From a virus, in IMG/VR virus record IMGVR_UViG_3300030104_004642, positions 1-64,000 of that record: a stretch of DNA of 64,000 bases. One strand, given 5' to 3'. A program made the position numbers and the translations under genes. This document shows positions 17,135 through 47,597 of this stretch, one piece after another (positions within the stretch are counted from its first letter, which is position 1; each line of letters begins with the position of its first letter). A model generated the notes under the pieces. The model saw only the letters and a list, made by a program, of their open reading frames with translations, made no database searches and was not told the DNA's origin.

Positions 17135-17169
17135 CTGGCATACCCTAAGGAGAATGATCAGTTCTCCAA

Positions 17170-17241
17170 CAGGTCCACTAGGAATCGAACCTAGAATAAC
17201 TGCTTAGAAGGCAGTAGTTATATCCGTTTAACTATGGACCC
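17170..17241 (-). tRNA. tRNA-Arg(TCT)
   Basis: GGGTCCA/TGGACCT acceptor; ACTGC-CTTCTAA-GCAGT anticodon arm; GGTTCGATTCC T-arm. Confidence 0.9.
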
Positions 17242-17315
17242 AGATGATGGTTCCTATCGCCGCTAACCCTGAACCACCAAGGGGGTCACCGCAGTGGTCT
17301 CTCAACCACCCTTTA

Positions 17316-27664: not shown

Positions 27665-28435
27665 TTAGGAACTTGCCAGACTGAATACATCTGAGTCACT
27701 TGTTGCAGCAACACCTGTCTCCTGTTGAAACTTTTTCAGGTCACCTTTTGATGGATTAGCAAACCTTTCTCTTGCCATATCATGATATTCATCTGACAGA
27801 TCAAACCCAATATAGTCATGACCAAGCAGGGTGGCAGCAAGACCAGTGGTGCCTGACCCACTGTAAGGGTCAAAGACCAGACCAGGCGCCTGCATCACTG
27901 CCTGTATGCACCTGGCAGGCAGGAATATGGGGTATGGAGCAGGGTGGGGGTTGTTCATGTCAGGGGCAAACTGCCAGACACTGTTCCAGTTGGCAGACCT
28001 TCTAGGCAATCTAGGATGCTTCTTACCCTTACACAACCAGTAGATCCTTTCATCAGTTTGGATGAATCTATATCCAGAAATCTCAGGTCCACTACCCCTG
28101 CTCCACACAATCTCCTCTCTGATATTCCACTTTGTCTTGGTCAACCACTCCCATGGTGAGATAGAATCACCATCAAGATACCTGACTTTATGATTATAGA
28201 ACAGAGAACCACCAGGTTTTGTCTTATCACAGATGATATCTAACAGTTCAATCTGCTGTTCCTGGTACTCATCCTCTGGCAGTGTGTCATCAAAGTCTTG
28301 ATATTCAATCTTACGAAACAATCCACCACCAACACCCCTCTTATTATAGGGAGGAGAAGTAACAGTGCAGTCAATGGAATTATCTTCAAGATCAAGTGCC
28401 ATGTTCAGGCAGTTACCAGTTCTGAGTTCAATCAT
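27665..28435 (-). CDS. beta-class N4-cytosine/N6-adenine DNA methyltransferase
   Basis: TSPPY catalytic motif precedes HPAPYP and DPYSGSGTT SAM-binding motif. Confidence 0.9.
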   Translation of the reverse strand: MIELRTGNCLNMALDLEDNSIDCTVTSPPYNKRGVGGGLFRKIEYQDFDDTLPEDEYQEQQIELLDIICDKTKPGGSLFYNHKVRYLDGDSISPWEWLTKTKWNIREEIVWSRGSGPEISGYRFIQTDERIYWLCKGKKHPRLPRRSANWNSVWQFAPDMNNPHPAPYPIFLPARCIQAVMQAPGLVFDPYSGSGTTGLAATLLGHDYIGFDLSDEYHDMARERFANPSKGDLKKFQQETGVAATSDSDVFSLASS

Positions 28436-33843: not shown

Positions 33844-34013
33844 TACAGGTTAAATCCAAATTGTTCACGAGCAATCTTCTTGTAAGGTCCACCAGGATTA
33901 GCATCCCTAATCTCCTTAATTCTTACAAGTTTTTGATACAAGGCAGCATCCCCACCAAGGCGGAGAGCACTGACAATTGTAGCAAGTTCTTTGTCATTAA
34001 TAGGAAGGTCCAT
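33843..34013 (-). CDS. small hypothetical protein (56 aa)
   Basis: MDLPINDKELATIVSALRLGGDAALYQKL...; TAATG overlaps at both ends. Confidence 0.7.
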   Translation of the reverse strand: MDLPINDKELATIVSALRLGGDAALYQKLVRIKEIRDANPGGPYKKIAREQFGFNL

Positions 34014-36508
34014 TATCCAAAAAATAGTTCCAGGTTTACAACTTTCTCAACATTCCAACCAATGGCATCAAGAATGACTTTGACAGGTTCCAAGAAGGCT
34101 TTGTCAAATTGTAGGTCATAGTCAATGTACTTGTCAACACCAAGTTCCATTGGAAAATCTGAGATGAATGAAATAACATTCTCCCTGATTGGATTTGCTT
34201 TTTTCAGGTAGAGAAACTTGATCTTCTCTCCATTGTTGATGAGTGAATATTTAGTATCAAGATTCTTCTCCTTGATATAGTGATTATACAGAAGGGCACC
34301 CCTACAATGAATGGGAGTTCCCTTGGCATAGATTGTAGAATAACTCTTATGTTTATTCACATCACTCACAGTCCTTGGGAAGGCAATGTCCTCTGGGGGC
34401 ATCTTCTTAAACTTTGCCCTGGCATCATCAATGAAGTCAATAACATCATCCTCAGTGCCACCCATCATCAGGTTGAGAGCATCCTTAATCATCTTCCTAC
34501 ATGGAGCAGGGGTGGATGATTTGACTGCCTCAATACCCATTATCTTGAGTTTTGCTTCCTCATATCTTACACCCTCACTGTCCCAGACATTGAGAATATA
34601 TCTTTTCTTTGCTGTCCAGATGCCCCTATCTGCAATATTCTCCCTCTTCATCTGCATCTTCTGAGCATATGCGTTTACATACGTCGCAAGATCTTGGTAA
34701 CTCTTCTCAATGAATGGTTCCAACTTCTCTTGGCAGATCTTGTCAAGTATGGTAACAAGTTTAGCCTTGTCACTAGACTTGCTACTAAAAAATTTATCAA
34801 CAAGAGGTCCAAAGTTAATATAGATTGAGTCAGTGTCAGATGCGATAACATAATCTACATCTTTTGTCTGTAACAGATTATTTAGGTATTCATTCATCTT
34901 GTTTTCAATCCACCTGATAGATGTCTGTCCTGACAGGGTGATTGCCTCTGCATTGGCAAGTTTGTAGTACCTAAAATACTGGTTACCGATAGCGCCATAA
35001 GCAGAGTTAAGAGAGATCTTCTTAGCCATTTGGATATTGTTGCACCTGGCAATCTCTTTCTCCAGTGCTTTACTTGGTGTCTTTTCATACTCCTGTTTTG
35101 CTTGAAGCATTCTTTTCTTAAAGATCACCCTCTCAGCATACATCTTCTCCATCAGTTCAGGGAGAAATCCCTTTACATCCTTCCTATACATTGCGCCATT
35201 AGCGCACACAGAATTATCCTTATACAACTCAAAACTTATCTCTTGATTAAGAATTCTATCAACTGTGGCTGCTGGATGTTTCTCTGGAAGGAGGGTCTCT
35301 GGGGAAATGTTATATTGCATAATAAGATGAGGATAGAGACTGTTAAGGTCAAAAGAGACCACCCAATCATACTTTCCTGGTTTCGGTTCCTTGACATAGG
35401 CACCTGCGAATTTAGAGTCCTTCTCTGATCTATCCTTGGGAGGAATAACAATGTTTCTCCTCTTTAAATAGTTATAAATTATGGTATCCCACATGCGAAC
35501 CTGATACATCACATCCACATAGTTGACCTTTGCAGTATAGGCCATAGTCAATGCAAGTTCAATCAGTTTCATCTTGTCTTCCAGACGGTCAACAAGTTCC
35601 ACGTCAATGATGTTGTAATCTACAAACTTCTTCCAGTTTCCCCTATAAAAATCTTTGAAGGTATCAAACTCACTGTGATCAAGTTTCTTCTGACCCAACT
35701 CCACCTGAGCAATATAGTCCAGTCTGTATGACTCCTGTGCCTTGTAGGTGAACTTCTTGTATAGTTCAAGATAGTCCAGTGTTGTAAGTCCAGCAATATC
35801 AAAGACATTAAACTTCCTACCAGAAATATATGCCTCATCCTGAGATACAAGACCCCAAGGTGAAAGAAGTTTCATCTTCTTCTCGCCCATTATCCTACTG
35901 ATCCTTCCACAAAGATATGGAATATCATACAGTCTTACATTCCACCCTGTAATAACATCAGGGGTATTGTTACTCCACCAATAAAGGAATGCGTTAAGCA
36001 TTGCTACCTCATCACTGTAATAATGATAGGTAACATTCTTCTGTGTAACCTGGTAGGGTTTTCTGCCCCAGGTGATGATCTCCTTGGTGGCATTATCCTG
36101 AATAGAGATAGTCAACATCTCCTCAGAACAAGATTCAGGGTCAGGGAATCCATTCTCTGCCTGAACCTCAATGTCCATTGTTACCAGGGAGATCTTTGAG
36201 ATATCAAATTTAATCTCTTCCCCTGGATACTTATCAGAAATATATTGATAGACATACCTCTCATTACCATAAATGGGAAAACCATCCACACCCTCATACT
36301 TCTTATAGAACTCCCTACAATCCCTAATGGTGCCTGGTTGGATAGGTTCTACATTATCACCTTCAAGGGTTTTCCACTTGGATTCTTTTTTAGATTTTAC
36401 AAATAGAGTTGGTTGATACTCCTCCTTATAGATTTTCTTTTGACCATTCTCATATTCACGAACCAGAAAGTTGTTGCCAACCATCTGGATGTTTGTGTAA
36501 AACCTCAT
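34013..36508 (-). CDS. gp43: family B DNA polymerase
   Basis: DIEV exo I, SFDLNSLYPH, KISLNSAYG, SDTDS, KKRY. Confidence 0.97.
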   Translation of the reverse strand: MRFYTNIQMVGNNFLVREYENGQKKIYKEEYQPTLFVKSKKESKWKTLEGDNVEPIQPGTIRDCREFYKKYEGVDGFPIYGNERYVYQYISDKYPGEEIKFDISKISLVTMDIEVQAENGFPDPESCSEEMLTISIQDNATKEIITWGRKPYQVTQKNVTYHYYSDEVAMLNAFLYWWSNNTPDVITGWNVRLYDIPYLCGRISRIMGEKKMKLLSPWGLVSQDEAYISGRKFNVFDIAGLTTLDYLELYKKFTYKAQESYRLDYIAQVELGQKKLDHSEFDTFKDFYRGNWKKFVDYNIIDVELVDRLEDKMKLIELALTMAYTAKVNYVDVMYQVRMWDTIIYNYLKRRNIVIPPKDRSEKDSKFAGAYVKEPKPGKYDWVVSFDLNSLYPHLIMQYNISPETLLPEKHPAATVDRILNQEISFELYKDNSVCANGAMYRKDVKGFLPELMEKMYAERVIFKKRMLQAKQEYEKTPSKALEKEIARCNNIQMAKKISLNSAYGAIGNQYFRYYKLANAEAITLSGQTSIRWIENKMNEYLNNLLQTKDVDYVIASDTDSIYINFGPLVDKFFSSKSSDKAKLVTILDKICQEKLEPFIEKSYQDLATYVNAYAQKMQMKRENIADRGIWTAKKRYILNVWDSEGVRYEEAKLKIMGIEAVKSSTPAPCRKMIKDALNLMMGGTEDDVIDFIDDARAKFKKMPPEDIAFPRTVSDVNKHKSYSTIYAKGTPIHCRGALLYNHYIKEKNLDTKYSLINNGEKIKFLYLKKANPIRENVISFISDFPMELGVDKYIDYDLQFDKAFLEPVKVILDAIGWNVEKVVNLELFFG

Positions 36509-37862: not shown

Positions 37863-37985
37863 CTAATCGTGATTGTGTTCATCAAAAGAATCTGTCAAGT
37901 CCTTGGAAGGTGGTCCAAAGGACAAGTATATCCCATAGGATGTAAGTATGGCAAGACTCAGCATGATGATTACAATCAGATTCAT
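37863..37985 (-). CDS. psbN: photosystem II assembly factor PsbN (40 aa)
   Basis: MNLIVIIMLSLAILTSYGIYLSFGPPSKDLTDSFDEHNHD: TM plus Y.IY..FGPPSK.L.D.F.EH signature; ATGA overlap with regA stop; below the track cutoff. Confidence 0.85.
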   Translation of the reverse strand: MNLIVIIMLSLAILTSYGIYLSFGPPSKDLTDSFDEHNHD

Positions 37986-38419
37986 TCTGCTTCCTGAGTC
38001 TTTCCTTTCTTACCAATATTATACTTCTGCTCCAGGGTCCAATCGTTCTTATCCCTGTATGGCAGGACTTTGATCTGATTCAATGGAGCAATATCCATGA
38101 TTGAATCTTCCTTCACCACACTAATGAGGCCCCAGTCAGCAAGAAGGCGAGTAATACGATTCCTACGCTGAACGTCGTTAACAGTAATGTTAGCGTATTT
38201 GCCATCAAGAGCAAACAACTCCTTAAAATGCACTATGTAATATTTACCTTGCTTGTGCAAAATATGGCAGGATTGATAAAGTTTTTTCTCTTTTCGTGAA
38301 GCTACACCAATTCTTGTTAAGGTTTCCCTTACTTTGAGGAAGTCATCTGGTTCATTCAATATAATCTCAATCATTTTATCCTGAGACCAATGAACCTGAG
38401 GTTCAGTAGTTTGATTCAT
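37982..38419 (-). CDS. regA: translational repressor RegA
   Basis: DDFLKVRETLTRIG, LYQSCHILHKQG.YYIVHFKELF.LDG. Confidence 0.96.
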   Translation of the reverse strand: MNQTTEPQVHWSQDKMIEIILNEPDDFLKVRETLTRIGVASRKEKKLYQSCHILHKQGKYYIVHFKELFALDGKYANITVNDVQRRNRITRLLADWGLISVVKEDSIMDIAPLNQIKVLPYRDKNDWTLEQKYNIGKKGKTQEAE

Positions 38420-38784
38420 CTTTTACCACCAGTGTCAAGTTTTTGTTTAATAAAGAGTAATTGTTCATTGGACAAGATTTTCAAAACTTGTGCTGCCTTC
38501 TCATTACTATAACCATAGTATTTTTTGACAAACTCAAGGTCTGAGACCTTTTCTTTACGAACCCAAGGAGAGAATCTCTTCCTCTTTCTCAGTGTATTTA
38601 TGTAAAAATTATATTGCATGTCTTTATCTAAGAAATGATACTTGTTCATCTCATTAGCAAACAAAACACAATCCAGATGTCCAGATAGACACCTGTTCAC
38701 AATGTATGGTGGATACTCCTTAATGTCCTCACTAAGATCTTCCTTAGTAAAGTTGATAGAATTCAACCAGTCTTTCAGTTCCAA
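38416..38784 (-). CDS. gp62: clamp loader small subunit
   Basis: LKDWLNSIN, YPPYIVNRCLS, ANEMN, RKRFSPW, YYGYS. Confidence 0.92.
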   Translation of the reverse strand: MELKDWLNSINFTKEDLSEDIKEYPPYIVNRCLSGHLDCVLFANEMNKYHFLDKDMQYNFYINTLRKRKRFSPWVRKEKVSDLEFVKKYYGYSNEKAAQVLKILSNEQLLFIKQKLDTGGKR

Positions 38785-38939
38785 TGCCTAATCACCCCTG
38801 CAATAATAAAACAGTTAGTCGCCAAATAAGTAAAGAATATAAAAGTACGAAGAATAGCAACAGCATTATCGTATCTTTTCGTCTTGACATCAGAGAAACT
38901 ACCCAGTGTGTACTTCCACAGTCTCCATAATCTCTTCAT
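38775..38939 (-). CDS. small membrane protein (54 aa)
   Basis: MKRLWRLWKYTLGSFSD...NCFIIAGVIRHWN, manual translation. Confidence 0.6.
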   Translation of the reverse strand: MKRLWRLWKYTLGSFSDVKTKRYDNAVAILRTFIFFTYLATNCFIIAGVIRHWN

Positions 38940-39318
38940 TGATATACCTCAAAAGTTCCTTGTCTTCAACATCATTTGGAATATCATTCTTATAGAAGAT
39001 CCTGTAACTATCAGAACCATACTTACCAATACCAAAGAGTTTGGTGGCATCCTCACCATCCCACTTAAGTATATCATGGGTCATACGCATGATACGATGT
39101 GCCCTGATGTTGAACATACCAAGTGGTTTGATAAAGTCAGAGAGACTATCATGCTGCCACACTTTAAGGAACTCCTCTGGTGTGGGTGTTATCTTGAATA
39201 GTTCTGTAAGGATTGGTTTTACCTGATTGCGTGATGTAAGGTTAAGACAGATGACACCAACCATGTGCTGCCATACATTATCAACCTGTTGTTGAACCAT
39301 CAGTTCTTCAACCATCAA
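38899..39318 (-). CDS. HhH-GPD DNA glycosylase, MBD4 catalytic-domain-like
   Basis: VQQ..W..MVGVICLNLTS, PLGM...RA, L.GIGKYGSDSYRIF closely parallels MBD4 (LHGIGKYGNDSYRIF), with the catalytic Asp retained. Confidence 0.8.
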   Translation of the reverse strand: MMVEELMVQQQVDNVWQHMVGVICLNLTSRNQVKPILTELFKITPTPEEFLKVWQHDSLSDFIKPLGMFNIRAHRIMRMTHDILKWDGEDATKLFGIGKYGSDSYRIFYKNDIPNDVEDKELLRYINEEIMETVEVHTG

Positions 39319-40216
39319 CCAGACCCTCCTTTTTCAATCTATTGAAATTGTAGCATCCTTCAAAGGTAAGTTGAACCTTTGGTTTCTTACCATAATTCAT
39401 AAGCAGAAGTTCTTTTCTTTCCTTCTGCTCTCTCATATATTTACCAACAGACCTGAGTGTATATGTATGTTCAAACTCTGCCATATTCCATTCCTGGAAT
39501 CTATCCTTTACTAACTGTCCTGAGTTGTAGGAGACAAGCATATTGATACTACAATCAGAGCAATCACGAGAAAAAGTGTCATGGTTGAATCCTTTATGCA
39601 TACTTCCTTTTTTTCCATATAAACTATCCTTAATGGCATAGGGTGGGTCCAGATAGATGAATGACTTCCTCTCAGAGTATTCATCCATTAATGCTTCATA
39701 GGACAGGTTTGTGATATTCCAGTTTTCAATAATCTTCTGGAAACCTGGAAGTCTATCAATACCCCTCTGAGTAAAATTGTTTTGTGATGCCATCTTAGAG
39801 AAGGAAGATGACTCAGTTAGACCAGAAAAAGAGCACTTATTTACAATATAAAATGCACATGCCTTGGCAAAATCATTAACACTATCATCATTAAGATGAC
39901 CCTTTGATGAATTGAATAACAACTTACACTTGTCAGGGTTATCATGAAACCTTTTAAGTGAACCAAGAAAATCCCTCATCTCATCACCTTTCTCCTGGAG
40001 TTGTTGCCAGAAGTTGGTTAGTGGTTTATATAAATCATTGACCCAGATGTTCAAATGAGGATACATCTTAGTCAAATGAATTGCTACTGAACCACCACCT
40101 AAAAATGGTTCCCTATATTCTTGATAATCAGTTAGATCAGGAATGTGGGGAACAATTTTAGTGAGAGCACGTGACTTACCACCAGGATAACGAAGAGGGG
40201 TTTTCAAAGATTTCAT
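39308..40216 (-). CDS. dam: alpha-class (D12) DNA adenine methyltransferase
   Basis: LRYPGGKS, EPFLGGGSV, ND, YLDPPY motifs; target specificity not verified. Confidence 0.88.
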   Translation of the reverse strand: MKSLKTPLRYPGGKSRALTKIVPHIPDLTDYQEYREPFLGGGSVAIHLTKMYPHLNIWVNDLYKPLTNFWQQLQEKGDEMRDFLGSLKRFHDNPDKCKLLFNSSKGHLNDDSVNDFAKACAFYIVNKCSFSGLTESSSFSKMASQNNFTQRGIDRLPGFQKIIENWNITNLSYEALMDEYSERKSFIYLDPPYAIKDSLYGKKGSMHKGFNHDTFSRDCSDCSINMLVSYNSGQLVKDRFQEWNMAEFEHTYTLRSVGKYMREQKERKELLLMNYGKKPKVQLTFEGCYNFNRLKKEGLVDG

Positions 40217-40218
40217 AA

Positions 40219-40485
40219 TCAGTGGATATAGTATTCAAAATTAAAGAAAGAGGAACTATGCATGAAACTTGTGCCATGATGCCCAAAACCTGATCCCCCA
40301 TGGGTGTGCTTATGGTAGTGGCAGTATCCCCTGTTTCTATGGCAGTGATGATGCTTGTGAGATGGCATCCAGTTGCGATGGGTGTGTGGGCGATGGGGAT
40401 GATGTTTATATCTATTTGCCTTGTGTGCCATGGCTGGTGTGCTAAGAAGCATACTACCAGCTAATACCAAGAGTAACTTTTTCAC
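40219..40485 (-). CDS. secreted His-rich protein
   Basis: Signal peptide (PAMA) followed by a His/Arg-rich region. Confidence 0.65.
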   Translation of the reverse strand: MKKLLLVLAGSMLLSTPAMAHKANRYKHHPHRPHTHRNWMPSHKHHHCHRNRGYCHYHKHTHGGSGFGHHGTSFMHSSSFFNFEYYIH

Positions 40486-40646
40486 TCAATTACCTCTAAT
40501 AAATTGTTTACAGAATTGGACAGTGATCTATATCCTGTGCCAACATAAATCTGACCTACCACCACTGAAACAGTAGCAACACTCCAGAATATGTAGTACC
40601 ACCTACTCTTGACTTGATGTTTTTTGCCTTGTTTCTTCGTCTTCAT
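40482..40646 (-). CDS. small membrane protein (54 aa)
   Basis: MKTKKQGKKHQVKSRWYYIFWSVATVSVVVGQIYVGTGY..., manual translation. Confidence 0.55.
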   Translation of the reverse strand: MKTKKQGKKHQVKSRWYYIFWSVATVSVVVGQIYVGTGYRSLSNSVNNLLEVIE

Positions 40647-40791
40647 AAGTAATGGAAATTCTTTTTTTCACATATCCCTTAGAGTCTATCACAAGACACT
40701 TATTAATACAACAGTTGTCAAGTGCCTCTTCAATATTCTGTAACTGCATATGCAGCATCAGATTCCTATCATGCTCACTCAGTCTTTTCAT
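40603..40791 (-). CDS. hypothetical protein
   Basis: 62 aa ORF in the operon. Confidence 0.5.
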   Translation of the reverse strand: MKRLSEHDRNLMLHMQLQNIEEALDNCCINKCLVIDSKGYVKKRISITYEDEETRQKTSSQE

Positions 40792-40975
40792 TGTAGTATG
40801 CTATGGTTTTGTGGAACTCTTCCAGTGGATCAGGATATTTATCAGGATATTGAATCCTGTTTATCCTATCCTTGAACTCTTTTAGTTCTGGGATATGCAT
40901 GTACCCAAGAACATCAATGAGTGCTATAAGTTCATCTTCATCCAACTGGATGTTACGAATGCCATAGTGTTTCAT
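40775..40975 (-). CDS. hypothetical protein
   Basis: 66 aa ORF, ATGA overlap with purS. Confidence 0.55.
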   Translation of the reverse strand: MKHYGIRNIQLDEDELIALIDVLGYMHIPELKEFKDRINRIQYPDKYPDPLEEFHKTIAYYNEKTE

Positions 40976-41247
40976 TTAACCCCCTGAGGCCATTCTTCAA
41001 TCTCCACCAAATCATAATCCCAATCCTCAATAACAGGATTAGCATACAGACGATCAGAAAGAAGGTCCAGTTCTTTTCTTGCTATCTCCTCAGTCTCTGC
41101 TTCCAACCAAACATCAATCACCTTACCCAGTCTAAGCTTCTTGATATTCAAATCAGACAGTCTTCTTGATGCATCCCTCACAGCATTGCCTGGTGAATCA
41201 TCAACCTGTGATCTCAAACGAATAAACACCAACCCTTTAAACTTCAT
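40972..41247 (-). CDS. purS: FGAM synthase subunit PurS
   Basis: LR..V.D.PG.AV, LRLGKVI, LYANPVIE. Confidence 0.88.
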   Translation of the reverse strand: MKFKGLVFIRLRSQVDDSPGNAVRDASRRLSDLNIKKLRLGKVIDVWLEAETEEIARKELDLLSDRLYANPVIEDWDYDLVEIEEWPQGVK

Positions 41248-41407
41248 TCTCTAACTCCTGGATGATTCTTGCTACTTGTTTTTTATTTGTTCCAGAAGGC
41301 GCATTATGCAGACAGATGAGAATACATTCTTTATCAGTGATGGGTGGTTTCATTGTCCACCCATTCTCATCAAGTAGAACCTCTGGTGCCTCAACATTTT
41401 CTGTCAA
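41237..41407 (-). CDS. small hypothetical protein (56 aa)
   Basis: TTG start; ...DENGWTMKPPITDKECILICL.NAP.GT..KQV. Confidence 0.5.
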   Translation of the reverse strand: MTENVEAPEVLLDENGWTMKPPITDKECILICLHNAPSGTNKKQVARIIQELENEV

Positions 41408-41601
41408 AATCCCCCTCCTTTTGATTTTTTCTTCTTTGGTTTTGATTTAGGTAAGATTTTTTTCATTTCCTCTTCTGAGTAATTGGCACAGAGAGAAAGC
41501 ATCTTATCAAGAGCATACTGATACTGAGAACCAGCACTCATCTTACTGAGTAGATGGTGTGCTACATCATACCTTAGTTCTTCAAGTTCTTTTTCATTCA
41601 C
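41404..41601 (-). CDS. hypothetical protein
   Basis: 65 aa ORF ending KKKSKGGGF. Confidence 0.6.
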   Translation of the reverse strand: MNEKELEELRYDVAHHLLSKMSAGSQYQYALDKMLSLCANYSEEEMKKILPKSKPKKKKSKGGGF

Positions 41602-42545
41602 TTGAACTCACACTCCACCATAATCTCAGTGAGACATGCCAGCATGTTTATTTCCTGATCAGCAACGAAAGAAGATTGGTATTGATACTTAGCAATGATA
41701 AGAACAGCAGCAGCAATGCCAGAACCTTCCAAGGACTGATAAGAAGCATCATAAACAGACCTAAGAAGTACAGTAGGATCATTGTCCAGATTATCGACGA
41801 CCCACTTACGTACCTTAGGAAAGTCTTTTTCTTTGAGCGTTTTAAAGAGGTCATCAGTTTTTACATTAGAAAAGGAAGCAAGGATGCCAGAGTCAATACT
41901 ACCACCAGCAGCATATCTCTGACATTCATTAAGAACACGTCTCCAATCAGGAAAGTGTTTCTGAATAAGTTCTACCAGGACCTTGTTATCATATTTAATA
42001 CCTTCTGCATCCAAGATTTCTTGGAGACGTGTGAAGAATGATGCTGCAAGTAACTGCTTTTCTTTTCCTTTGAGGGCAAAGTCAATGACTGAGCATCTGC
42101 TATGAAGGGGTTGAATGATTTTGTTTTTGTAGTTGCAGGTGAAGATGAATCTGCAATTACCAATAAACTCCTCTGTAAACGCCCTAAGGCAGAGTTGAAC
42201 ATCTGGGGTTGTGTTATCTGCCTCATCAATAATGATGACCTTGTGTTTGGCAGAAGAAGATAGCGATACAGTTGAAGCGAAGTTCTTTGCATTATTACGT
42301 ACAGTGTCTAAGAATCTACCCTCATCAGAACCATTGATAACATAGTAATCTGTGCCTAATTCAGCACAGAGTGCCTTAGCAACTGTGGTCTTACCACAAC
42401 CTGGTGGTCCTGATAGGAGAAGGTTAGGAACCTCCCCCTTATCTAGGAAATCAATAAAAGTGCTCTTAATATTTTTAGGAAGAATGCACTCTTCAATTTT
42501 CTTTGGGCGATACTTCTCTACCCAAATAAACTCATCACGACTCAT
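41598..42545 (-). CDS. gp44: clamp loader large subunit
   Basis: WVEKYRP, GPPGCGKTT, IIDEAD, SRC. Confidence 0.96.
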   Translation of the reverse strand: MSRDEFIWVEKYRPKKIEECILPKNIKSTFIDFLDKGEVPNLLLSGPPGCGKTTVAKALCAELGTDYYVINGSDEGRFLDTVRNNAKNFASTVSLSSSAKHKVIIIDEADNTTPDVQLCLRAFTEEFIGNCRFIFTCNYKNKIIQPLHSRCSVIDFALKGKEKQLLAASFFTRLQEILDAEGIKYDNKVLVELIQKHFPDWRRVLNECQRYAAGGSIDSGILASFSNVKTDDLFKTLKEKDFPKVRKWVVDNLDNDPTVLLRSVYDASYQSLEGSGIAAAVLIIAKYQYQSSFVADQEINMLACLTEIMVECEFK

Positions 42546-42648
42546 CTTTCTCCTGTTGTTTTTTCAACCATTCTTTGAACTTTCTCTTACCCTCTACAAC
42601 CTTCCACCAGGGAGCATAAAGGGGTCCATCATAATCTTTTTTCATCAT
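42535..42648 (-). CDS. small hypothetical protein (37 aa)
   Basis: MMKKDYDGPLYAPWWKVVEGKRKFKEWLKKQQEKDES fills the speD-gp44 gap. Confidence 0.5.
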   Translation of the reverse strand: MMKKDYDGPLYAPWWKVVEGKRKFKEWLKKQQEKDES

Positions 42649-42973
42649 ATCTATTAATTACCTGAGAGTCAAGGTCAGTAGCAGCCATTGCTTCATACAT
42701 GTATGAGGCACCTGCCCTTGGACTTGTGTGTTCGCCACAGGTGAATATATCACACACTGCTATTCCACTCTCAGGCCAAGTATGAATGGATATATGGGAC
42801 TCTGCTAATAGTGCAATTCCAGTAACCCCCTGAGGTTCAAATTTGTGAGTTGTAACATTCAACAAATTACTTCTGGATAATGTGGCAGCATTGGCAAGGA
42901 CATTGCGAATGTGTGCCTCATCATCCAAAAAACCATAGGGGCATCCTTTTAGTGTAAAAAGAATGTGTTTCAT
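42629..42973 (-). CDS. speD: pyruvoyl-dependent S-adenosylmethionine decarboxylase-like proenzyme
   Basis: HKFEPQGVT, LLAESHISIHTWPE, CDIFTCG. Confidence 0.9.
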   Translation of the reverse strand: MKHILFTLKGCPYGFLDDEAHIRNVLANAATLSRSNLLNVTTHKFEPQGVTGIALLAESHISIHTWPESGIAVCDIFTCGEHTSPRAGASYMYEAMAATDLDSQVINRYDEKRL

Positions 42974-45495: not shown

Positions 45496-47597
45496 GCAAC
45501 CAACTCCATAAACTTACCAAGAACTTTCTTATTTAGTGATTTTGTCTTCAAATTTTTGATAAAGGCAGATTTGATTTTTGCTTTGGAAGCACCATCCTCC
45601 ACATTGAAATCAGTATCTTGATTAAGGGCGCCAGTTTGCATAGCAAAGTATGAGGTGTATCCAGAATTCTTGATGTCAAAATACTTGTCCTTCTTGATTC
45701 TCTTCAAATCATCCTCATTTAACCATTGATACTTACGAATGAAGTTGTTCATTTCTCTGGGAGGACAGAGGCGAATACCAATGAAGTTTGTATTGGAGAA
45801 GGTGTCTTTTAGATCCTGCAATAGAACCTCAGTAAAGGAATGATACTCATACCCAAACAGATAGGTAAACCCAGTTTTTCTGTTTCTGAGATAAGAAGAT
45901 CCACCACTGATGTGCTGAGCTCCTTGACCACCATAATAGTTCTCCCTACCAATCATCATACCATTTGCCTCACCATCAGTAAGGACAAAACAATGCACCT
46001 TTTGAAGATCATTGCTCTTCTTAAACTGAGGAATAATCTGCTTCAACATAATGAGTGCCTCATTCAGAGGTGTTCCAGAGAGAGAATACTGACGTGGATA
46101 GGAATAATTCACATACATTCTCATACCAAACACCATCCTGAAAACAGAAAGCATCTGTGCTTCAAGATCTTTCTTCTTAGCAGTGCTGCTCAGAATATTC
46201 ATCAATCCAAAGTCACCACTGATGATGAACTTATTCTCTTCCCAGACAGTTCTATCCCTGAAATTAGGATCAACACTATCAATGTAAGAGTTTGAAAAAG
46301 CATAGACATCAAATGGGATGTTGCACTTACTACAAAACCAGATGAGATTGTAGAGTTGTTTGATTGTTTCAAGGATACAGTTACCCATTGAACCAGACCA
46401 ATCAAGAATAAAGATCAGTCCATGATTTTTACCATCAGCAAGGGTGGTAATTTTTTTGAAAAGATCCTCATTGTACTTGTAAGTGTGGAGTTTGGAACAA
46501 TCAAGCACACCAGTCCTGGCAGTGGATGCACGTGCATAAGAATCTGCTGCCTTCTTACACTCAAACTCTTTCACAAGATAGTTGACTTCCTTCTGAGCAG
46601 ATTTCCTGAATTTTTGATACTCTGAATCCACATGACCAAATATATCCCTGCCACCACCTAACTCTTCAACTGTTTGAAGGTTGAGTTTTTCAGATTCTTG
46701 TAATTCTTTTTGAATCTTAGCAAAAGGAATGATAAAGTTTTTAACATCAAATTCAGGCATCTCATAGTAACCATTCTCATGACCATCAAGATTACCGTTG
46801 AACTCCTCAACACGTTCCTCAAAGGTTTGATCTGTCTGGACTTCTGGTTCTGTTCCAGGTGCCCCATCAGGCGTTTCATCTTGATTCTGGTTTTCACTTT
46901 TTGATTCATTTTGTTGTGCCTCAGGACTTTCATCTTCACTGTCACCAGAGGAAACTGGTGTGTTCTCAGGGAACTGTTGCTGTTCCTGTTGCTCACCACC
47001 ACCCTGACCACCAGATTTTGGTGGTTGAGGCATGGGTTGCTTCTGGGGTTCCTGGTTACCCTTACAATAGGCATAAAGGGTTTTTGCTGCCTCAACAGCC
47101 TCATCAAATGTTTCAGCATCACCAATCTGTTTGATGATGACCATCTCCTCCTCAGTAAAACTGATATTGATAAATCTACCAATCTTGAAGTATAGATTGG
47201 CACGATCTGCCAGGTTCATCTCATCAACATCTTGATCCTCAATACAGAAGAAATCTTGATCTGAAAGTTCCTTATAACCAGAATAAAATGTCTTGTGTAG
47301 ACCAGGATATTTACGTTTCATTAGTTTCTCAATGCGAGCATCCTCAGTCACATTGACAAACTGTTGGGGTACAACTTTTTCCCAACTCCAATCATTAGAG
47401 GTGAACAATGCGTGTCCAACCTCATGACCAACCAGCATATCATATACAGTGCTAGAAGCACGCTTCCACATTGGCAGGGTCAATACCCTTGTCTCAACAT
47501 TGAATTGTGCGGTTGAGACATTTTTGTTTTCAACAATCAAGTCCTCAGTGGCAAGCAATTTTGCCAGCTGGGATTTAACTTCATAGTTGACAGGCAT
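45492..47597 (-). CDS. metallopeptidase-like/VWA domain protein (CobT-like partner of CobS)
   Basis: HEVGH...EDARIE N-domain, acidic linker, MIDAS DWSGSM...GTPL...LTDGE. Confidence 0.85.
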   Translation of the reverse strand: MPVNYEVKSQLAKLLATEDLIVENKNVSTAQFNVETRVLTLPMWKRASSTVYDMLVGHEVGHALFTSNDWSWEKVVPQQFVNVTEDARIEKLMKRKYPGLHKTFYSGYKELSDQDFFCIEDQDVDEMNLADRANLYFKIGRFINISFTEEEMVIIKQIGDAETFDEAVEAAKTLYAYCKGNQEPQKQPMPQPPKSGGQGGGEQQEQQQFPENTPVSSGDSEDESPEAQQNESKSENQNQDETPDGAPGTEPEVQTDQTFEERVEEFNGNLDGHENGYYEMPEFDVKNFIIPFAKIQKELQESEKLNLQTVEELGGGRDIFGHVDSEYQKFRKSAQKEVNYLVKEFECKKAADSYARASTARTGVLDCSKLHTYKYNEDLFKKITTLADGKNHGLIFILDWSGSMGNCILETIKQLYNLIWFCSKCNIPFDVYAFSNSYIDSVDPNFRDRTVWEENKFIISGDFGLMNILSSTAKKKDLEAQMLSVFRMVFGMRMYVNYSYPRQYSLSGTPLNEALIMLKQIIPQFKKSNDLQKVHCFVLTDGEANGMMIGRENYYGGQGAQHISGGSSYLRNRKTGFTYLFGYEYHSFTEVLLQDLKDTFSNTNFIGIRLCPPREMNNFIRKYQWLNEDDLKRIKKDKYFDIKNSGYTSYFAMQTGALNQDTDFNVEDGASKAKIKSAFIKNLKTKSLNKKVLGKFMELVA

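Follow-up and report, generated by a model that had tools for sequence, protein, structure and literature searches.

The stretch of DNA analysed here (hereafter the window) covers the first 64 kb of the IMG/VR contig IMGVR_UViG_3300030104_004642, which measures 115,002 bp, is estimated to be ~60% complete and derives from an uncultured ocean cyanophage. On its minus strand, at 38899..39315, lies a gene whose product is, as judged from sequence and predicted fold, a stand-alone minimal HhH-GPD glycosylase of the MBD4 type, the repair domain by which animals excise T or U opposite G. This protein is probably an accessory, mobile, monofunctional G:U/G:T glycosylase that would rely on the host for the processing of apurinic/apyrimidinic (AP) sites. 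A mechanistic tie to the methylase whose gene it overlaps (39308..40216, minus strand) is unlikely, and the glycosylase is neither the cause nor an obligate partner of the pronounced CpG depletion of the contig.

A predicted MBD4-type glycosylase with conserved catalytic residues

The first-pass annotation of the window had described an open reading frame (ORF) at 38899..39318 (minus strand) with the motifs VQQ..W, LNLTS, PLGM and GIGKYGSDSYRIF, and this ORF is present as described. An 11-nt overlap with the stop of the methylase gene had also been reported, which holds when the ORF is read from TTG 39318 (139 aa). The next codon, ATG 39315, is where the homologues and the public gene call P0001 (138 aa) start; it is most likely the true start and would give an overlap of 8 nt (ATGGTTGA).

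When the protein was compared with all PDB chains by phmmer, the MBD4 glycosylase domain accounted for the 15 best matches (E 5.7e-15 to 8.4e-14, query residues 12-125), with Endonuclease III trailing at E 1e-3. A profile of 25 homologues matched MBD4 with an E value of 2e-21 and the mismatch glycosylase MIG (1KEA) with 1.2e-5. An AlphaFold (AF2) model was built on an alignment of homologues (predicted local distance difference test score, pLDDT, 87.7) and compared with the PDB by Foldseek. The result showed that the top 16 matches were all MBD4 (template modelling score, TM, 0.69-0.81, probability 1.0), followed by MIG 1KEA (rank 17, E 1.1e-3), MutY and Endonuclease III. The resemblance to MBD4 that had been noticed by eye is thus borne out by the phmmer, profile and structure comparisons. 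The general family models gave less: the protein scored 22.9 bits with Pfam HhH-GPD, under the cut-off of 26.2, and 25.9 bits with the NCBIfam model TIGR01083 nth, against a cut-off of 211.7, and no family was assigned to it in a search of PHROGs. The protein corresponds to the catalytic domain only. It lacks the N-terminal methyl-CpG-binding domain of MBD4 proper and ends ~20 residues past the catalytic Asp, without the C-terminal 4Fe-4S loop of the Endonuclease III/MutY/MIG branch, whose members have ~210 aa or more.

Residue conservation was counted over 77 family representatives; for the roles of MBD4 residues we relied on Morera et al. (2012; PMC3479182). In MBD4 the catalytic Asp, D560, lies in the motif ..HPED.. 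(PMC3479182) and aligns with D119 of the phage protein (in VEDK), which is kept in 77/77. The earlier statement that the catalytic Asp is retained is therefore correct, but the residue that had been named, the Asp of GSDSYRIF, is D103, which is conserved in 73/77 and yet does not occupy the catalytic position. W16 (W457 in MBD4) and the glycine of the PLG motif are both found in 77/77, N26 (N467) is found in 76/77, and Y100, the counterpart of the pocket residue Y540, is Tyr in 76/77. Y100 is part of the HhH hairpin G96-I-G-K-Y100-G and stands at the position of the Schiff-base Lys of Endonuclease III; given Tyr instead of this Lys, the enzyme would be monofunctional, and a lyase step is not expected. 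The Arg of the NRTS motif of MBD4 (R468, the plug) is Leu27 here, as had been noted. Since this position varies across the family (Q in 28, K in 17, L in 12 and R in 12 of the 77) and MBD4 contacts the orphan guanine through main-chain carbonyls (PMC3479182), Leu27 is not a defect; the Arg468 plug marks vertebrate MBD4, not the wider family.

Mobility of the glycosylase gene

The glycosylase gene is under purifying selection, with dN/dS values (the ratio of nonsynonymous to synonymous divergence) of 0.09-0.11 against six relatives. A pseudogene or a gene in decay was considered and ruled out at a dN/dS of ~0.1. The synonymous divergence (dS) from the related loci L006 and L008 was 0.39-0.50 for the glycosylase gene, compared with 1.3-2.5 for the flanking genes gp43, gp44 and gp62, and the dS from L003-L005 was 0.3 for the glycosylase gene, compared with 1.3-2.2 for the methylase gene. 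The position of the gene also shifts: it adjoins gp43 in L008 and lies among small hypothetical genes in phage S-TIM54. The discordant dS values and the changed positions indicate that the glycosylase gene is a mobile accessory cassette and that its adjacency to the methylase gene is recent. Among loci spanning the region from gp44 to gp62, 27 of the 29 that carry the methylase are without the glycosylase, as is phage P-TIM68, and the glycosylase occurs without this methylase, which is M.CbeI-like (see below), in L008 and S-TIM54. These results demonstrate that the two overlapping genes have different histories.

The cassettes of L006 (10001-10390) and L008 (2536-2916) are 92-93% identical to the window copy, in backbones that are only ~75% identical. 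Their ratio of observed to expected CpG (o/e) is 0.31-0.33 inside backbones of ~0.6, which points to a recent lateral transfer of the cassette from a CpG-purged lineage.

CpG depletion goes with an N4CMT-like methylase

The CpG depletion and the tRNA-Arg(UCU) gene reported in the first-pass annotation were both confirmed. Across the 115-kb contig, which contains 537 CpG, the CpG o/e amounts to 0.122, with TpG/CpA at 1.37, and it falls to 0.02-0.04 over 75-105 kb. By codon position it is 0.22 (1-2), 0.08 (2-3) and 0.11 (3-1), and in non-coding DNA 0.17. The tRNA gene, found by ARAGORN at 17169..17242 (minus strand), reads AGA, in keeping with an Arg codon usage that has shifted towards AGR (1150 codons, compared with 166 CGN). 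The loss of CpG is directional: CG sites present only in the relative outnumbered those present only in the window by 229 to 30 for L006 and by 145 to 18 for L008, and the sites lost in the window relative to L006 were mostly replaced by TG/CA. The remaining CpGs are mainly in ACGT, ACGA/TCGT and ACGC/GCGT (o/e 0.17-0.21), while CCGG, CCGA/TCGG and TCGA are nearly absent (o/e 0.01-0.02), so that the contexts are graded from YCGR to RCGY. Pooled related loci showed the same ranking of CpG contexts as the window contig.

It had been proposed that presence of the glycosylase gene is linked to low CpG. The results showed that ~75 phage loci with ordinary CpG carry the gene: most of the carriers L009-L082 have a CpG o/e of 0.6-0.88, and the values for S-TIM54 and the Xanthomonas phage Xp12 are 1.02 and 1.01, respectively. 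The gene is absent from six CpG-purged loci spanning gp44 to gp62 (L084, L089, L101, L111, L137 and L157; o/e 0.20-0.34), from the complete genome of the cultured phage P-TIM68 (o/e 0.123 over a 41.6-kb stretch), and from the CpG-purged contigs G006 and G008, which carry an N4CMT-like homologue and in which gp62 is internal to the contig. The glycosylase is thus neither necessary nor sufficient for the CpG purge. An association with a C5-cytosine methyltransferase (C5-MTase), also proposed, was not found either, as C5-MTase (PF00145), ThyA and ThyX were all undetected both in the 115-kb contig and in five large contigs of other glycosylase-carrying phages.

The CpG purge goes instead with another gene, 10 kb away from the glycosylase locus. 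The ORF at 27665..28435 (minus strand) encodes an N4CMT-like beta-class SPPY cytosine-N4 methyltransferase (PF01555, 6.7e-32); its best PDB match is the CpG-specific rotifer N4CMT (8S9M/8S9N, E 5.5e-44), and it is 80% identical to AIR93494.1 of P-TIM68. All of the 37 IMG/VR loci that carry a homologue at 73% identity or more had a CpG o/e of 0.12-0.39, against a background of 0.6-0.75. ACG/ACGT is the preferred context of N4CMT, and a G on the 3′ side or a T on the 5′ side is unfavourable (PMC10406627); the CpGs remaining in the contig lie in the contexts that the enzyme favours. This pattern fits protective methylation together with selection against poorly protected CpGs, not the decay of 5-methylcytosine (5mC). 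The M.CbeI-like methylase that overlaps the glycosylase gene was also considered as the cause of the purge, as it is carried by all six purged spanning loci. This was rejected because the unpurged loci L146 (77%) and L128 (72%) carry equally close copies and the purge follows the N4CMT-like gene much more closely.

The overlapping methylase

The product of the gene at 39308..40216 (302 aa) is an alpha-class (D12) amino-methyltransferase with a DPPY motif (PF02086, 2.3e-31), in agreement with the earlier statement that it is not a C5 enzyme. The label "Dam-like" that had been attached to it is doubtful: it scored 91.1 bits with TIGR00571 dam, against a cut-off of 114.85, and its best PDB match was 7M6B (E 6.2e-45), with DpnM at 1e-9. 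The structure 7M6B is that of M.CbeI, an alpha-class N4-cytosine methyltransferase for GGCC that is 57% identical to the cyanobacterial DmtB (PMC8616854, PMC3425538). By this similarity, the overlapping methylase is probably an N4-cytosine (GGCC) enzyme of the M.CbeI/DmtB family rather than Dam. The GGCC o/e was 0.11 in loci with the M.CbeI-like methylase and 0.43 in loci without it, a difference that is suggestive only, as AGCT was lower too.

Two further features of sequence composition were observed. After trinucleotide correction, several 4-bp palindromes were under-represented on the contig, namely AGCT (0.28), GGCC (0.30), TCGA (0.32), TGCA (0.45), CTAG (0.47) and GTAC (0.47). A subgroup of closely related T4-like cyanophages (L085-L087, L090, L092, L093, L095-L097, L100, L106, L112 and L008) had a GpC o/e of ~0.5, with CpG near the group background of ~0.6, and those of its loci that span gp44 to gp62 are without the M.CbeI-like methylase. 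Deamination cannot account for the loss of GpC in this subgroup.

Distribution of the glycosylase family

The glycosylase family comprised 5569 clusters (90% identity) at E≤1e-3, with 1130 representatives at 50% identity, and was found in 117 IMG/VR contigs. The nearest ESM-Atlas clusters were 100% Uroviricota (tailed phages). Among 50,697 phage records, the only carriers were S-TIM54 and 13 Xp12-like records, from phages of Xanthomonas, Stenotrophomonas and Janthinobacterium. A scan of genome contigs with a narrow alignment returned a single contig of a Chloroflexota metagenome-assembled genome, a search too limited in pattern to imply absence of the family from bacteria.

In Xp12 (L002, MT664984.1), an unannotated family member at 46973-47455 lies directly upstream of a HAD hydrolase gene, a thymidylate-synthase-like gene and a dCMP deaminase gene. 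The DNA of Xp12 contains 5mC in place of C (PMC7653180) and is the case of greatest need for a G:T glycosylase. The majority of the remaining marine carriers are members of a single phage group, with the synteny PolB-Exo-cupin-[glycosylase]-epimerase ... PRT-HIT-FolE-radical SAM-2OG-FEN. The loci of this group (L047:5000-15500, L029:5000-16000 and ~40 related ones) are on contigs of 117-182 kb, estimated to be 33-50% complete. A folE gene and a radical-SAM QueE-like gene lie near the glycosylase gene in 23 of the 46 larger marine loci, which form one related group and not 23 independent events. The FolE and radical-SAM genes suggest a 7-deazaguanine-type modification of the DNA of this group.

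Genomic setting

All 99 long ORFs of the contig (G000, 1-115002) lie on the minus strand. The glycosylase gene had been placed in the replication operon, and it does lie inside a T4-type gp43...gp45 replication block with the order gp43, regA, gp62, an insertion region holding orf54, the glycosylase gene, the methylase gene and small ORFs, then gp44, speD and gp45. Within this block gp43 is at 34013-36508. The variable insertion region is bordered by the gene for the clamp-loader subunit gp62 (38416..38784, minus strand; PF16790, phrog_225) and by that for the clamp loader gp44 (41598..42545, minus strand), which has homologues of 75-91% identity in 80 IMG/VR loci. The 54-aa orf54 (38775..38939, minus strand) shares 41 nt with the 3′ end of the glycosylase gene and is also found upstream of gp62 in some relatives, both with the glycosylase (L003-L005) and without it (L121, L149 and L151). 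A promoter and terminator scan of 37900-42700 gave promoters that scored no better than those in shuffled sequences, and nothing was detected between the glycosylase and methylase genes. An 88-aa ORF at 40219-40485 (minus strand) begins like a signal peptide (MKKLLLVLAGSMLLSTPAMA) and continues into a tail extremely rich in His. It matched no family in Pfam or PHROGs; its product may be a secreted metal-binding peptide.

Proposed function and alternative explanations

The most likely role predicted for the glycosylase is to start the repair of G:U/G:T mismatches that arise by deamination. On the basis of homology to MBD4, we infer that the HhH hairpin (GIGKYG) and two loops would bind and bend the DNA, and that a U or T opposite G would be flipped out into a pocket that the N-terminal VQQ segment makes together with Tyr100 and Asp119, with Leu27 plugging the gap left in the helix. 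A water molecule activated by Asp119 would then cut the glycosidic bond, and the abasic site would be passed to a host AP endonuclease, followed by polymerase and ligase. Placed as a cassette in the variable gp44-gp62 region, the gene would serve, during replication, to limit C→T mutations caused by the deamination of cytosine.

Several points weigh against this proposal. The substrate is predicted from homology at 28-32% identity. In MBD4, Val448/Gln449 form the base-recognition segment and Q449A is inactive (PMC3479182). The N-terminal segment of the phage protein that may correspond to it, M7-V-Q-Q-Q-V12, is invariant in the marine clade, whereas the other family members have L-[IL]-Q-E. 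A gapless alignment puts Gln449 of MBD4 on Val8, with Gln9-11 after it, and both HMMER and hhalign leave the segment unaligned; the AF2 model has a mean pLDDT of 53 over residues 1-10. As the segment is unlike that of the rest of the family, specificity could differ. Neither an AP endonuclease nor a uracil-DNA glycosylase (UDG) was found in the 115-kb contig (~60% of the genome), so completion of the pathway would fall to the host. Finally, the glycosylase was found in 0/80 loci picked by gp44, and most T4-like cyanophages thus manage without the gene.

The explanation first put forward was a eukaryote-style regime, in which CpG sites of the phage DNA are 5-methylated and the T:G mismatches that result are repaired by the MBD4-like enzyme, accounting for the depletion of CpG. 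The low CpG o/e with TpG/CpA at 1.37, the directional loss of CG relative to L006, mostly to TG/CA, and the type of the enzyme are all as expected from it. However, no C5-MTase, ThyA or ThyX was found in the 115-kb contig, and the glycosylase is common at normal CpG and missing in purged relatives, among them P-TIM68 with its complete genome. Moreover, the purge follows an N4-cytosine methylase, and an o/e of 0.02-0.04 over tens of kb, with YCGR at 0.01-0.02 against RCGY at 0.17-0.21, looks like selection against unprotected CG sites, not deamination decay. A working repair enzyme would in any case slow the loss of CpG, not cause it. This regime is therefore regarded as very improbable. A second explanation ties the glycosylase to the N4CMT-like (CpG) and M.CbeI-like (probably GGCC) methylases, whereby U arising from C or N4-methylcytosine (4mC) would be removed at retained, methylated and constrained sites, in a 4mC analogue of dcm-vsr or M.MthTI-Mig. 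The similarity of the overlapping methylase to a GGCC N4-cytosine enzyme, the CpG-type N4 methylase 10 kb off and the start/stop overlap, by which translation may be coupled, agree with such a tie; so does the low CpG of the cyanomyovirus glycosylase clade (o/e 0.13-0.33) even in unpurged backbones, which suggests long residence in purged genomes. Against it stand the discordant dS of the two overlapping genes to the same relatives (1.3-2.3 for the methylase, 0.3 for the glycosylase), the many phages that carry either methylase and no glycosylase, and the glycosylases of S-TIM54 and L008, which are accompanied by neither. In addition, the deamination of 4mC yields U, a base that is dealt with by ordinary UDGs, and 4mC has been reported to resist deamination. 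We consider this tie unlikely.

Rather unlikely, too, is an altered specificity or a role in counter-defence, with the enzyme removing another base, undoing the damage of a host defence of the DNA-deaminase type, or attacking host or competitor DNA. Its basis would be the MVQQQV pocket segment and the Leu/Gln plug. That this segment is invariant in the marine clade and departs from the family consensus, and that the gene recurs in phages with base-modification genes (Xp12 with its 5mC, and the marine loci with folE and QueE-like genes nearby), would accord with it, but the remaining pocket and catalytic residues all match MBD4, no conserved defence or anti-defence neighbour was seen, and the 23 marine loci belong to one related phage group and are not independent. 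The recurrence in phages with modified DNA allows a further, doubtful reading, in which the glycosylase is a "modified-genome maintenance" enzyme that has been recruited repeatedly by such phages and would here protect those few methylated CpG/GGCC sites that have been retained. The modification would be 5mC in the Xp12-like phages, probably a 7-deazaguanine in the marine group and 4mC at CpG/GGCC in the window phage, and host repair would be unable to read or correct the deamination products in these genomes. Repair of G:U/G:T mismatches by a mobile accessory enzyme remains the role that we infer for the glycosylase.

Significance and comparison with known systems

MBD4-type glycosylases have been studied almost only as a eukaryotic guard against the deamination of 5mC. 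The results presented here reveal that minimal stand-alone versions make up a large family that is purely viral, represented by thousands of clusters from marine metagenomes and by Xp12. No paper describing such a family was found, and searches for phage MBD4-like enzymes and for CpG depletion in cyanophages returned nothing relevant from the literature collection that was covered. The viral versions are small and easily expressed, and the Q/K/L/R variation at the plug position makes them useful for the study of mismatch recognition or as tools. That the family recurs in phages whose DNA is modified gives a lead that can be put to the test. For the window itself, the main value of the analysis is corrective, as the account of a phage with a eukaryote-like system of CpG methylation and repair is not borne out.

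The mammalian MBD4 domain (4E9E, 6VJW, 7KZ0 and 1NGN) has the same fold as the phage protein (TM 0.69-0.81) at 28-32% identity. Common to both are the GIGKYG hairpin with its Tyr, D560/D119, W457/W16, N467/N26, the lack of an Fe-S cluster and a length of ~140 aa. Unlike MBD4, the phage protein has no methyl-CpG-binding domain, has Leu in place of Arg468 and MVQQQV at Val448/Gln449 (with the register uncertain), and belongs to a bacteriophage. The Xp12 protein QNN97216.1 and the "ENDO3c domain-containing protein" of AXL_1 match ~89% of the length of the window protein at 29-32% identity (E 5e-9 to 4e-8) and are members of this stand-alone family. The Xp12-like homologues sit in a replication/nucleotide module, and their carriers are siphoviruses of Xanthomonas, Stenotrophomonas and Janthinobacterium. 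In Xp12, the 5mC provides an obvious rationale for G:T repair.

The next-best fold after MBD4 is that of Mig.MthI/MIG (1KEA), a thermostable HhH-GPD mismatch glycosylase that acts on T:G. Its gene adjoins that of the GGCC cytosine methylase M.MthTI and offers a prokaryotic precedent for a pair of methylase and mismatch glycosylase. MIG has ~220 aa, an Fe-S cluster domain and a C5-methylase as partner and acts on a T:G lesion, whereas the neighbour of the phage protein is an amino-methylase with which it is not co-inherited. In the dcm-vsr system of E. coli, a cytosine methylase gene is likewise overlapped at its end by a gene for repair, whose activity is directed at deamination products. There, dcm makes 5mC, Vsr is an endonuclease and not a glycosylase, and the two genes are stably linked; in contrast, the linkage of methylase and glycosylase in the phage is recent and facultative.

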